This document shows positions 3,657-8,231 of a stretch of 64,000 bases of DNA, piece after piece; the first letter of the stretch is position 1; each line of letters opens with the position of its first letter. The DNA lies in the sequence record LC519489.1; one strand, written 5' to 3'. The translations under genes and the position numbers were made by a program. The stretch comes from Escherichia phage SP22. The notes below the pieces were generated by a model that was not told where the DNA came from, did no database searches, and worked only from the letters and a program-made list of their open reading frames with translations.

Positions 3657-4205
3657 ATGAAGAAATTGATTCTAGGTTTGTGCTTAATGTTTACAGCACA
3701 CTTATCTTATGCAGTTGACTGCCCAGAGCTATCAATTAGCCAAAAAGTGAACATGTTAAAAGCTTACCAGTATGGTGAGAATAACATGGGTAAAGGTTGG
3801 GGTATCACTCTAGCAGCTATAGCCTTACAAGAGTCAGAGTTAGGTCTGAAGGTAGAAAATAAAAAGACCCATGACTATGGTATCTTCCAGAATCACTTGA
3901 AGACTGTTGTAAAGCGTAACAAAATTAGTCCTAATGTTGCTAAAAAGAAACTCTTAAAAGATTTTGACTATGCTGCGAAGGAAACGCACAAAGAACTTGA
4001 GTTTTGGACAAAGGTGCATGGTCAGCCAAAGTCAAAGAAGACTTTACAAAAAGTTTTAGCATCATATAATGCTGGGTATTCGTACAGAATCCCTAAAGCT
4101 AAGAAGTATTCTCAAGATGTCTATAACAACATGAAAGTTATTGCTCAATGTGAATTTGCAACAAACATTTCTAAGGTAAACCATGAAAAAATTAAAAAAG
4201 TCTGA
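3657..4205 (+). CDS. secreted protein with lytic-transglycosylase-like (SLT/lysozyme-like) motif
   Basis: N-terminal signal peptide MKKLILGLCLMFTAHLSYA; QESELG...YGIFQ resembles the SLT catalytic-Glu region; SD aggag. Confidence 0.4.
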   Translation: MKKLILGLCLMFTAHLSYAVDCPELSISQKVNMLKAYQYGENNMGKGWGITLAAIALQESELGLKVENKKTHDYGIFQNHLKTVVKRNKISPNVAKKKLLKDFDYAAKETHKELEFWTKVHGQPKSKKTLQKVLASYNAGYSYRIPKAKKYSQDVYNNMKVIAQCEFATNISKVNHEKIKKV

Positions 4206-4878
4206 TGAAGTCCTGTGCCACGCTTATGACTTACATCCTCATGAGTTAGGTCTTGATTCCTGTGTATGGACTCCAGAACAGTGCAGAGATTTTGAAGACA
4301 CTGCAAGAGAGGTTGTATGTTCACTTGAAGAGTTCCACACATCAGAACCCATTGTGAACGTTGTGGACAAAGAGACTGGACAAACTATAGGTGTAAGGCG
4401 TGATAGTTTAGTGATAGTCAATAAAGACCTTGTAGAAAAAGGTAACCTCATCTTAGCAGATATTGATGGTGTTCTTACAAATTTTAATCACGAAGATTGC
4501 TCAACGGAATTGACTGATGGGTCATTCTCACAGTACACTAATCTTCTTGATTCTGTAAGAGCAAAACCAACATATGTTTTCAACATTATTGATGCAATTG
4601 CAAATCATGCAGCAGTTGGACTCTTGACAGCAAGAGGTGAATCTCAGAGAATACCTACTGAGATGTTTTTAAGGCACAATATAGAGCATGATTACTTGCT
4701 TTTTATGCGTGGTTTTGGAACTAACTCTATAAGTGCAGAAAGTTTGAAAGTGAGGATGATTCAGTCTTGCATTCTTCCTTACTTTAATATAGTATGCTTT
4801 ATAGAAGATACAGAGAAGAATGTTCAGAAGGTAAACAGAATCCTTCCACACATTAAAACCATGTTAGTTAAACATTGA
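4183..4878 (+). CDS. putative HAD-family hydrolase (possible nucleotidase)
   Basis: HAD motif-I-like LADIDGVLT, LLTARG motif II candidate; start overlaps upstream gene. Confidence 0.3.
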   Translation: MKKLKKSDEVLCHAYDLHPHELGLDSCVWTPEQCRDFEDTAREVVCSLEEFHTSEPIVNVVDKETGQTIGVRRDSLVIVNKDLVEKGNLILADIDGVLTNFNHEDCSTELTDGSFSQYTNLLDSVRAKPTYVFNIIDAIANHAAVGLLTARGESQRIPTEMFLRHNIEHDYLLFMRGFGTNSISAESLKVRMIQSCILPYFNIVCFIEDTEKNVQKVNRILPHIKTMLVKH

Positions 4879-5354: not shown

Positions 5355-5367
5355 GGTTAAGATACAG

Positions 5368-5390
5368 GCTCCTTCGGGAGCCTTTTTCAT
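5368..5390 (+). terminator. rho-independent terminator
   Basis: ggctccttcgggagcc hairpin + ttttt. Confidence 0.7.
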
Positions 5391-5406: not shown

Positions 5407-5754
5407 ATGACATTTAAAGAGTTCTGTCAAGCTACTTTCATAGTTGTTTTCTTAGTTGGGGCAGGTGTCTGGGGAGGATACTCTTACAGAGACTACCAAG
5501 TTGCTGAAACTGAGCTAAACAATGAGAAGCTGATAAGTGTTGCTAAAGATGCTTATCAGGAAGGATTAGCTACACTGAGCACCAATTACAAAAATGATTT
5601 GAAAGATGTGCTTGCTAAGAATAAGCACACAAAAGAGGTACTAACGTATGAAAAAACTAAGCCAGAGTTTTATAATGTTTGTGTTACTGATAATTATGTC
5701 AGGGTGTTCAACGAACAAAGTGAACAGTACATTCAAAAACTCCCAAGTAAGTGA
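5407..5754 (+). CDS. membrane protein with single N-terminal TM helix (i-spanin-like or exclusion protein candidate)
   Basis: hydrophobic segment FIVVFLVGAGVWGG near N-terminus; SD caggag; 3' end overlapped by lipoprotein ORF in another frame. Confidence 0.4.
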   Translation: MTFKEFCQATFIVVFLVGAGVWGGYSYRDYQVAETELNNEKLISVAKDAYQEGLATLSTNYKNDLKDVLAKNKHTKEVLTYEKTKPEFYNVCVTDNYVRVFNEQSEQYIQKLPSK

Positions 5755-5917
5755 GAGTGACAAGTACACTCAAGAAGAATCACGGTATATCATCAAAGGT
5801 AACACAGGCAGTGATGTAGCAGCAGCACTTGAGTTCTACCGTGACGGCTTTTACCAGTGTACAATTAAAGCTAATAACCTTATTGACATGATTTTATTAG
5901 GGAATAAGCAGCAATGA
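5648..5917 (+). CDS. putative lipoprotein (o-spanin-like or Llp/Cor-like exclusion lipoprotein candidate)
   Basis: lipobox LLIIMSG-C after basic N-terminus; ORF overlaps 3' end of preceding TM-protein gene by about 107 nt in a different frame. Confidence 0.4.
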   Translation: MKKLSQSFIMFVLLIIMSGCSTNKVNSTFKNSQVSESDKYTQEESRYIIKGNTGSDVAAALEFYRDGFYQCTIKANNLIDMILLGNKQQ

Positions 5918-6183
5918 CAGAGAATCAAGACACTTTCTATGTAGAAGGTTACTTACTGTTGCCACGACCAAAAGAAACTTATATGCGAATTGATTTCTTA
6001 CCAACCATTATGGATAATGTGATGTGTCATATCTTTATGCAAGGTGTCACAGCACAGCTTAAGCATGTTGGTAAAGATTGCAAAATAAAGGTTGACACTC
6101 ATCCAGAAATCAAAGAGAATCACTACACATGGTTCTTACCAGATTCTAAAGAAATCTTAGCAGTTCTTAAAACGAGGAAGTAA
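5914..6183 (+). CDS. hypothetical protein
   Basis: ORF track, start overlaps upstream stop. Confidence 0.4.
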   Translation: MTENQDTFYVEGYLLLPRPKETYMRIDFLPTIMDNVMCHIFMQGVTAQLKHVGKDCKIKVDTHPEIKENHYTWFLPDSKEILAVLKTRK

Positions 6184-6726: not shown

Positions 6727-6927
6727 ATGGCTGACTTCTGCAAAGACTGTTCTATAGAAATGTTTGGACGTGATACAGGTGACTTAAAAGGTCTTATCAC
6801 TGAAGATGACTTTAAAGCTGGCTATGCAATGCCAGTAATCTGTGAAGGTTGTGGATGTATCTGGGTAGACCATGAGGGGCAACGTGTAAAACCTTCAGAA
6901 GATAAAGAATCTTGGGAGAGATGTTAA
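6727..6927 (+). CDS. small Cys-rich (zinc-ribbon-like) protein
   Basis: CxxC...CxGCGC motifs. Confidence 0.4.
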   Translation: MADFCKDCSIEMFGRDTGDLKGLITEDDFKAGYAMPVICEGCGCIWVDHEGQRVKPSEDKESWERC

Positions 6928-7713
6928 ATGGGTATTGTAAAAATAATCAATGGTGATATCTTTGCCGCATTTGATAAAGGTAAGTTTGACATCATCGGTC
7001 ACGGTTGCAACTGTATGAATTTAATGGGTGCAGGTATCGCTGACAAGATTTCTAAACTTTACCCAAAAGCATATGAGACCGATACAGAAGTTTATCTATA
7101 TGCAGGTGGTATAGGACACAAACCCTGTGAAAATTTACTGGGTAATTTCTCTGTAGCACGTTTAAAACAAGGTCGTATAGCTAACCTTTACACTCAGCTT
7201 AAGACTGGTAAAGATGCCCGATACAGTGCTTTAGAGTCATCTTTGAAACAGCTTAACAGATACTGTGAAGTTAATCAGTTGAGGAAAGTTGGTTTACCTA
7301 TGATTGGTGCAGGTATCGGTGGGTTGGACCCTCAAGCCGTCACAGTTATCATCAATCAGGTGATGAAGAGTGTAGATGTTTATCTATATGTCTATGAAGG
7401 AGAGATGTACCACAAGTTACGCTCAGGTTGGAATAACTACTGTGAACCAGAATACTTTGCAGGTGTAGTAACGTTCAAAGATGATACAGTTACCCTCTTC
7501 AGACGAAGAAAAGGTAAGATACATCAAAGTAACCCTCCGGTTGAGAAGATGTCTCTAAGTAACGCTCTAGTTACCCACCTGTCGAAGAGCAATCACAGGA
7601 TAGCCGTAACATTTGGCAGTGATGCAGATACATATATTTATGCAAGAACTGATGAGGATATCGAGACGGTCTTCTCTTCACCGGAAGTTACCTTCTTAGA
7701 CGCAAAGAACTAA
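6928..7713 (+). CDS. macro-domain-like protein (ADP-ribose binding/processing fold)
   Basis: INGDIF...DIIGHGCNCMNLMGAGIA and LPMIGAGIGGL resemble macro-domain Gly-rich motifs; 261 aa. Confidence 0.45.
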   Translation: MGIVKIINGDIFAAFDKGKFDIIGHGCNCMNLMGAGIADKISKLYPKAYETDTEVYLYAGGIGHKPCENLLGNFSVARLKQGRIANLYTQLKTGKDARYSALESSLKQLNRYCEVNQLRKVGLPMIGAGIGGLDPQAVTVIINQVMKSVDVYLYVYEGEMYHKLRSGWNNYCEPEYFAGVVTFKDDTVTLFRRRKGKIHQSNPPVEKMSLSNALVTHLSKSNHRIAVTFGSDADTYIYARTDEDIETVFSSPEVTFLDAKN

Positions 7714-7745
7714 GAAACTCTGTATAATATTCACAATAGACTAAG

Positions 7746-7790
7746 CCTTCCTTATCTGGTAAATTTTTCAGGTAAGGAGGGCTTTTTCAT
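7746..7790 (+). terminator. imperfect hairpin + U-run after macro-domain gene
   Basis: ccttcctta...taaggagg inverted repeat followed by gcttttt. Confidence 0.4.
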
Positions 7791-7964
7791 TTCAGGATTG
7801 TGCAGGTAGAGTTCTGTAGAGAAATCTGTAGAGAGAATTTTGAACTCCAAAGAGAAAATTCATTTTCAAACTGTGCAGGTAATCTCCAAAGAGCTTTTTC
7901 ATTTTCAAAAAGTGCACCCCGCCCAGGTCGGGCAAGAAAAATCATTTTAGAATTGTGCAGGTAG
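7783..7964 (+). repeat. four imperfect direct repeats, consensus TTTCATTTTCA-N5-TGTGCAGGTA (copies near 7783, 7856, 7895, 7937), followed by a C-rich tract 7985-8020
   Basis: read directly; the same CTTTTTCATTTCAGGA motif also sits upstream of the gene at 5407. Confidence 0.6.
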
Positions 7965-8139
7965 GTTTTTATGGAGAGCCATACCAACCCCTCTCCCCCT
8001 ATTACCCCCTCTCTCCCCAAAAGTCAAGAGAAAAATTTGTAGCGGATTGAAAAATAATTCTTGATTTGTGTTCTGTTTTGTGGTAGTCGTGTGCGCACGT
8101 TTCATTACAGTTTTTCCAAAAATATTTTTAAAATTTTTC

Positions 8140-8231
8140 TTGACTCTTTGAACGGGGTTATCTAGTATTTGCATCAACGGGGAGGGAATGACCTTCCCCA
8201 CTAAATAAAGTCCTAAACTGGAGATTCAAAA
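8140..8231 (+). promoter_or_regulatory. cassette type A copy 1: promoter (-35 ttgact 8140-8145, -10 tagtat 8163-8168) + stem-loop ggggagggaatgaccttcccc (8179-8199) + conserved leader ...cctaaactggagattcaaaa-ATG
   Basis: 17-bp spacing; hairpin and leader repeated 7 times in window. Confidence 0.65.

Follow-up and report, generated by a model that had tools for sequence, protein, structure and literature searches.

A two-domain macrodomain protein of the Felix O1-like Escherichia phage SP22, a candidate early counter-defence ADP-ribosyl hydrolase

Toxins of the DarT2 type ADP-ribosylate thymidine in single-stranded DNA and block phage replication (PMC11825919). The closest characterised phage relative of the protein described here is Tk.4 of phage T4 (155 amino acids (aa)). 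Its gene, tk.4, is the single T4 gene that is conditionally essential on DarTG2-expressing E. coli; a clean deletion of tk.4 sensitises T4 to DarTG2, and the gene was named adfM, for anti-DarT factor Macrodomain (bioRxiv 10.1101/2025.11.20.689424). A bacterial macrodomain, SCO6735 of Streptomyces coelicolor (PDB 5e3b), carries Gln85 at the position of the catalytic Lys, hydrolyses thymidine-linked ADP-ribose (dT-ADPr) on DNA and protects against DarT; its Q85A and Q85E mutants are inactive, and the activity of N27S is nearly abolished (PMC9411070). Macrodomains are very common in myoviruses (PMC9503650). Here we describe the macrodomain gene found in Escherichia phage SP22, in a stretch of 64,000 nucleotides from sequence record LC519489.1 (in the following, the window), together with its predicted active site, its additional C-terminal domain and its genomic surroundings. 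The coordinates of the features are collected in Table 1.

The window comes from a Felix O1-like myovirus of the genus Felixounavirus, a phage of E. coli. Between positions 6000 and 9000 it shares 99.9% identity with Escherichia phage wV8 and with the O157 typing phages 8 and 11. The macrodomain gene (hereafter the macro gene) is the ortholog of gp12 of wV8 (100% identical) and of open reading frame (ORF) 13 of Felix O1 (96% identical), and its product matches PHROG 335 with E=8e-113. In public records it is annotated variously as 'macro domain protein', 'phosphatase' and 'O-acetyl-ADP-ribose deacetylase'. By tblastn, 2,785 of 50,697 phage records contain homologs of the macro part, those at the tk.4 locus of T-even phages included. 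The main text of the PhageMaP study is silent on the essentiality of the ortholog in phage Bas63. In Felix O1, ORF13 is among the genes with maximal expression at 5 min post-infection, as measured by reverse-transcription PCR (PMC3185647). A preliminary description of the same DNA, made from the letters alone, had proposed a gene exactly here, in the early region of a lytic phage; the ORF lies precisely at these positions on the plus strand, the assignment to Felixounavirus agrees with a lytic phage, and the label 'early' is supported by the expression peak of the Felix O1 ortholog.

Residues 1-157 of the protein are a macrodomain of the ALC1-like class, the class of TARG1, DarG, SCO6735 and Poa1p, and the resemblance is far above chance. 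The Pfam model Macro (PF01661; gathering score 22 bits) matched residues 25-141 over its positions 2-117 of 118, scoring 31.6 bits (E=1.7e-7). When a profile built from 31 homologs was compared with the PDB sequences, it found TARG1 (E=3.9e-17), DarG of M. tuberculosis (4.6e-16), SCO6735 (2.5e-15), Poa1p (4e-15) and DarG of T. aquaticus (1.4e-13). The AlphaFold2 model of the 261-aa protein reached a mean predicted local distance difference test (pLDDT) value of 90.3 and a predicted template-modelling score (pTM) of 0.88. Its best Foldseek match was TARG1, with E=1.2e-10 and a target-normalised template-modelling (TM) score of 0.81-0.85; DarG (E about 2e-9), Poa1p and viral nsP3 macrodomains were also matched, the alignments comprising about 155-180 columns only. 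The top 50 PDB matches were all macrodomains or designs on a macrodomain scaffold (probability 1.00, TM up to 0.85). The two Gly-rich phosphate-binding loops expected of the fold were found as M33-GAGIA38 and I126-GAGIGG132. Human TARG1/OARD1 (PDB 4j5q/r/s) and yeast Poa1p (6lfq-u) are the best PDB matches by structure and sequence; unlike the phage protein, both are eukaryotic and single-domain.

The residues that define the active site are strongly conserved, with invariance referring here to the alignment of the 31 homologs. In the first motif H25, G26, N28, C29, M33, G36 and A38 are invariant, and N28 lines up with the conserved Asn of DarG; in the second motif the invariant residues are N86, L87, T89 and Q90, and in the second Gly-rich loop P124, G127 and G129. 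HMMER and MAFFT alignments place NLYTQ opposite YLITK of TARG1 and NFPTK of DarG, and the HMMER alignments place G131 at the position of Asp125 of TARG1, the Lys84/Asp125 dyad of TARG1 being absent and represented by Q90 and G131. As aligned, the active site is neither DarG-like nor TARG1-like, with Gln90 in place of Lys80 or Lys84 and Gly131 in place of Asp125, and since the Lys/Asp dyad is missing the protein stands outside TARG1-type catalysis. Its active site is instead of the Gln type known from SCO6735, with Q90, N28 and H25 corresponding to Q85, N27 and H24, the equivalence of Q90 and Q85 being transitive (via K84 of TARG1 and K80 of DarG) and not taken from a direct alignment with 5e3b. 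Like the phage protein, SCO6735 is ALC1-like, lacks the Lys and Asp of TARG1 and DarG, has Gln instead and keeps the His, the Asn and the loop Gly; it differs in being bacterial, with a housekeeping or antitoxin-like role, and in having no additional C-terminal domain. In SCO6735 the lysines K34 and K89 position the DNA.

These results bear on the preliminary description, which had recognised a macro domain from Gly-rich motifs. All motifs quoted there are present, NGDIF at residues 8-12, HGCNCMNLMGAGIA at residues 25-38 and LPMIGAGIGGL at residues 123-133. Profile search and predicted fold agree on the domain, and the unrelated Rossmann-like fold that had been named as the contrary outcome did not appear. 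The assignment holds for residues 1-157 only, however: residues 158-261 form a separate domain that had gone unnoticed, as had the exchange of Lys for Gln in the active site.

Tk.4/AdfM aligns with the phage protein in BLASTP at 35% identity over 161 residues (E=3e-24), and the two have the motifs HGCNC, MG(A/S)G(I/V)A, NLYTQ and P.IGAGIG in common. The tblastn matches in T4-like genomes sit at the tk.4-vs locus. Both proteins are phage-encoded, stand-alone macrodomain proteins with no toxin gene adjacent, and both match only the DarG models in PADLOC and NCBIfam. AdfM differs in consisting of a single domain, whereas the 261-aa protein carries an added domain of 104 aa, and in its gene context, the tk-vs region of T4 as against a position downstream of rIIA/rIIB in the Felix O1-like phage; the anti-DarTG2 phenotype is established for T4 only. 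The protein is best classed as a new member of the AdfM-like group of phage macrodomains.

The relation to DarG itself is one of homology without membership. In the PADLOC defence library DarG was the sole match (E=5e-13), and in NCBIfam the sole match was the DarG equivalog NF048014, with E=1.7e-12 and 47.3 bits over model positions 4-152 of 338, that is, over the macro part only and far short of the full-length cut-off of 250 bits. When two bona fide DarG proteins from plasmids, encoded beside DUF4433/DarT genes, were compared by hhalign, the match reached a probability of 98.9 and E=1.8e-17 over 156 columns. DarG of DarTG2 (M. tuberculosis/T. aquaticus; PDB 5m3i/5m31/5m3e) likewise consists of a homologous macrodomain followed by a C-terminal accessory domain, but its catalytic K80 (NFPTK) contrasts with the Gln of the phage protein (NLYTQ), its C-terminal domain is unrelated, and its gene, unlike the phage gene, is adjacent to a DarT gene. 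No Pfam match to DUF4433 (DarT) was found in the neighbours gp3-gp11 and gp14, and none is annotated in wV8. The phage protein is thus outside DarG proper on four counts: score, Lys, C-terminal domain and neighbouring toxin.

The C-terminal domain is an orphan. When its profile was searched against 1.84 billion representative proteins, the credible matches were only macro-fused relatives or their fragments, confined to Felix O1-like relatives; otherwise neither the profile search nor Foldseek, which matched the macrodomain part only, revealed a sequence or structural relative. A kinship with PQQ/beta-propeller repeats was rejected: large multi-repeat proteins matched the profile with E=1e-9 to 1e-4, and these matches were judged spurious on inspection of one of the proteins (P0038), whose beta-propeller-like GVVYVGS..NVYAL repeats seem to match through generic beta-hairpin similarity. 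A kinship with the DarT-binding domain of DarG was rejected (hhalign probability 0.2 against the two DarT-adjacent DarG proteins), as was that with a divergent cREC_REC domain, for which hhalign gave no match. The latter domain occurs in a metagenomic Gln-type relative of the macrodomain (P0026, L012:1250-2269), which is fused to the cREC_REC 'cyclic-phosphate processing receiver' PF20274 (E=4.7e-7); different C-terminal modules have thus been joined to macrodomains of one clade. The orphan domain is diverging at about twice the rate of the macrodomain, with identities to Suspvirus of 81% for the macrodomain and 51% for the C-terminal domain, and identities to distant relatives of about 43% and about 20%, respectively.

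The gene is also exchanged as a cassette. In Salmonella phage Si3, which likewise belongs to Felixounavirus, the two-domain allele shows only 41% identity to the macro protein of the window, whereas the upstream gp11 proteins are 100% identical. At the DNA level window and Si3 agree to 86-99% as far as position 6899 and to only 46-72% from the start of the macro gene through the terminator, with recovery by about position 7979; this delimits a gene-sized mosaic replacement (window 6928-7978 versus Si3 L014:2702-3960). When genomes that are otherwise nearly identical differ by such a gene-sized swap, the locus concerned typically interacts with variable host factors. Together with the faster divergence of the C-terminal domain, the replaced Si3 allele would fit the signature of an arms race.

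The explanation that we favour, with a probability of roughly 55%, sees in the protein an orphan two-domain ADP-ribosyl hydrolase that is expressed early, takes ADP-ribose (ADPr) off DNA and serves as an antitoxin-like counter-defence enzyme. The N-terminal macrodomain would bind nucleobase-attached ADPr and cleave the ribose-base bond, the likeliest substrate being N3-ADP-ribosyl-thymidine placed by DarT2-type toxins on single-stranded phage DNA; its removal would make the template replicable again, so that replication could continue. Catalysis would follow SCO6735, with Gln90, positioned by Asn28, orienting the distal ribose, and with water, not a Lys nucleophile, starting the cleavage. SCO6735, which has Gln and hydrolyses dT-ADPr on DNA, shows that a Gln variant is capable of this chemistry. 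The C-terminal module of about 100 aa, specific to Felix O1-like phages, may be a binding module for some partner or target (the toxin or DNA, for example), a role proposed because this domain evolves faster than the catalytic one. The timing fits, as ORF13 expression peaks no later than the start of DNA replication. The DarG matches in the defence libraries, the invariance of Q90, N28 and H25 and the place of the gene downstream of rIIA-rIIB, kept in distant relatives, also speak for this explanation. The preliminary description had named the protein a counter-defence candidate, and this has since gained support, experimental though indirect, from AdfM, which T4 needs for resistance to DarTG2. 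The substrates suggested there (proteins, nucleic acids or signalling molecules) were generic; the evidence now leans, by analogy, to thymidine-linked ADPr on DNA, both the substrate and the defence system countered being deduced from homologs at 22-35% identity.

Several points weigh against this explanation. The identity to AdfM is only 35%, and for AdfM itself the reversal of DNA ADP-ribosylation was proposed, not demonstrated (bioRxiv 10.1101/2025.11.20.689424). The literature searched contained no tests of Felix O1-like phages against DarTG, nor anything relevant that would link Felixounavirus or Ounavirinae to DarTG. Macrodomains of this class also act on protein-linked ADPr, U-ADPr RNA, O-acetyl-ADPr and ADPr-1''-phosphate (PMC9503650, PMC9411070, PMC13036486). 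The low score against the full-length DarG model and the indirect equivalence of Q90 and Q85, both given above, count on the same side. The C-terminal domain fits none of the domains compared with it; its isoelectric point ranges from 4.75 to 9.46 across the homologs, neither consistently acidic nor basic, and no consistent charge signature of a DNA mimic or of a DNA-binding domain was found across them.

An alternative that we regard as unlikely is that the enzyme processes soluble derivatives, namely ADP-ribose-1''-phosphate, O-acetyl-ADP-ribose or immune signals (His-ADPR, cyclic ADPR isomers), either as housekeeping linked to the NAD+ salvage of the phage or as a signal degrader or sponge directed against Thoeris-like systems. 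The historic annotation as 'phosphatase/A1pp/Poa1p-like' points in this direction, and yeast Poa1p has H-x-C-N-C...G-x-G-I-A in common with the family and is ranked first by a profile of the N-terminal half (E=2e-9; 4e-15 with the full profile); Poa1p, however, has Ser30 (mutated in the solved structures) opposite Leu32 and a Ser where the family has the invariant Gln90. The NAD+ salvage genes nadV, phosphoribosyl pyrophosphate (PRPP) synthetase and 'NAD synthetase' are encoded in wV8 outside the window, but at a distance of more than 65 kb and in another transcription unit, and the genome annotation lists neither a 2'-phosphotransferase nor a TIR-related partner. According to a comparative-genomics survey, the targets of phage macrodomains are chiefly ADPr derivatives of low molecular weight (PMC9503650), and the fusion of the related P0026 to a cyclic-phosphate-processing domain would suit such a role; against this, the sole experimentally supported phenotype in phage members of the motif family is anti-DarTG2.

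Somewhat more doubtful still is the erasure of ADP-ribosylation from protein or RNA, by which the enzyme would reverse the marks that host toxins place on proteins or mRNA of phage or host (CmdT-like, other ADP-ribosyltransferase (ART) toxins, U-ADPr RNA) or tune an ART of the phage. By structure and by sequence TARG1 ranks first among the matches, and TARG1-like macrodomains, bacterial ones included, efficiently reverse the ADP-ribosylation of uracil bases in RNA (PMC13036486), yet Q90 and G131 stand in place of the Lys84/Asp125 dyad with which TARG1 acts on Glu/Asp-linked protein ADPr. A further substrate of SCO6735 is auto-ADP-ribosylated PARP1 (PMC9411070). A phage-encoded ART partner was not found, none being annotated in wV8 and no ART domain being present in the ten largest unassigned ORFs of the first 32 kb of the window, a non-exhaustive sample, and no RNA-uracil ADP-ribosylating defence is known to restrict Felix O1-like phages.

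Least probable of all is a non-catalytic ADPr reader or stoichiometric toxin inhibitor, acting by binding and possibly via the C-terminal domain: the Lys on which DarG and TARG1 rely for catalysis is absent, SCO6735, DarG and TARG1 continue to inhibit DarT by interaction when catalytically dead (PMC9411070), AdfB of phage ICP1 neutralises DarT by binding alone, and the C-terminal domain is fast-evolving and allele-exchanged, as expected of a protein-protein interface, but the SCO6735-type catalytic residues (Gln, Asn, loop Gly) are invariant in all homologs, single-domain ones included, and the DarT-binding domain of DarG bears no resemblance to the C-terminal domain.

A more far-reaching reading, which we put forward as a speculation with a low chance of being right, would make the protein a 'rebuilt', convergent DarG. 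A Gln-type eraser would have been fused to an unrelated, fast-evolving domain that either blocks DarT or another ADP-ribosylating effector or targets the enzyme to phage replication intermediates, and the wV8-type and Si3-type alleles would match differing toxin variants. If true, the protein would represent both a novel two-pronged anti-toxin architecture and a novel fold taking part in toxin neutralisation.

Table 1. Features of the macro gene of Escherichia phage SP22 and of its transcription unit (positions in the window).
Feature	Position	Strand	Description or evidence
Macro gene, complete	6928..7713	+	ATG start, 261 aa, 29 kDa, TAA stop
Macrodomain, residues 1-157	6928..7398	+	ALC1-like (TARG1/DarG/SCO6735/Poa1p) class; Pfam, Foldseek, hhalign
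H25-G-C-N28-C...M33-G-A-G-I-A38	7000..7041	+	Conserved His and Asn, first Gly-rich phosphate-binding loop; alignment
N86-L-Y-T-Q90	7183..7197	+	Q90 at position of catalytic Lys (DarG K80, TARG1 K84)
P124-M-I-G-A-G-I-G-G132	7297..7323	+	Second Gly-rich (diphosphate-binding) loop; alignment to TARG1 PRIGCGLDR
C-terminal orphan domain, residues 158-261	7399..7710	+	Six-strand beta meander, then one helix; confident AlphaFold2 prediction
gp11	6727..6927	+	66-aa Cys-rich (CxxC...CxxC) protein, directly upstream of macro gene
Upstream terminator	5366..5383	+	5' boundary of gp6-gp12 unit; terminator prediction, annotated in wV8
Intrinsic terminator	7743..7784	+	Closes the unit that ends with the macro gene; 17-bp stem, then T-run; annotated in wV8

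The macro gene is the last gene of the transcription unit between the two terminators, the downstream one folding with -28.7 kcal/mol (z=-5.3). It shares this unit with gp11, whose TAA stop abuts the ATG of the macro gene, with a Shine-Dalgarno sequence GGGAGAG at 6914-6920. With tblastn (E<=1e-3), 835 phage records contain homologs of gp11, among them some with identities of 67% to ORF059 of T5, 72-77% in rV5-like Vequintavirinae and 45-55% in Pseudomonas and Stenotrophomonas phages. A role of gp11 (Zn-ribbon) as a dedicated partner was rejected in view of its homologs at 55-77% in T5-like, rV5-like and other phages, and is further weakened by two distant two-domain relatives (L006 and L007) that carry other upstream genes; by this distribution gp11 is a small, widely exchanged phage gene. 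The remaining small proteins of the neighbourhood contain no informative domains.

Upstream of this unit lie rIIA-rIIB and a gene for a polynucleotide kinase (PNK)-like HAD phosphatase, an order that is kept in metagenomic relatives whose macro proteins are 33-35% identical. The PNK-like gene (PHROG 3970, 'polynucleotide kinase') is located at 4183-4878 (+) and keeps its place between rIIB and the macro gene in the distant relatives as well (L006:5565-6227; L007:5675-6361). A Vs.1-like gene with a weak SLT match lies at 3657-4205; in T4, tk.4, vs and vs.1 are adjacent. The unit of the macro gene is headed by a putative spanin pair, which lies some 15 kb away from the gene for the endolysin. 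Its first member, an Rz-like spanin (PHROG 1152) at 5407-5754 (+), overlaps an ORF at 5648-5917 (+) that begins with MKKLSQSFIMFVLLIIMSGC, which resembles a lipobox and makes this ORF a putative Rz1-like o-spanin.

The approximately 450 nucleotides past the terminator of the macro gene (7785-8230) hold only short ORFs on both strands, of which wV8 annotates a 54-aa gp13 and KP869106 an 84-aa minus-strand ORF. Also in this segment are a terminator-like hairpin on the minus strand (7937-7917) and one of the 'DR' direct repeats of wV8, which recur upstream of many of the following small genes. Further away, at 18735-19313 (-), a 193-aa protein gave weak, sub-threshold Pfam matches to DUF5092 and SNAD1 (AID/APOBEC-like deaminase; E=0.003).

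Outside the 6-9 kb region the identity between the window and wV8 (NC_012749) is 87-97.5%, with several indels, and the two are distinct phages. The offset between them changes at 21253-21408 and elsewhere, a gap of about 500 bp lies in the region of gp41 ('tail protein') and gp42, where the ORF has 210 aa in the window and 377 aa in wV8, and further rearrangements are found near 27-30 kb and 59-63 kb.

The macrodomain annotation of this gene is already public, and a counter-defence function is to be expected for a domain so annotated; the features that deserve follow-up are the orphan domain, the Gln-type active site common to AdfM, and the allelic exchange, and no others. Felix O1-like phages are widely used in the typing of Salmonella and E. 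coli, in biocontrol and in therapy, and DarTG and other ADP-ribosylating defences are present in their hosts. If the protein is an anti-DarT2 eraser, its recognition would help in the prediction of host range, and the AdfM family would reach beyond the T-even phages and take in a Gln-type catalytic variant as well as a two-domain layout. The diversification of counter-defence enzymes can be approached concretely through the orphan C-terminal domain together with the allelic exchange.

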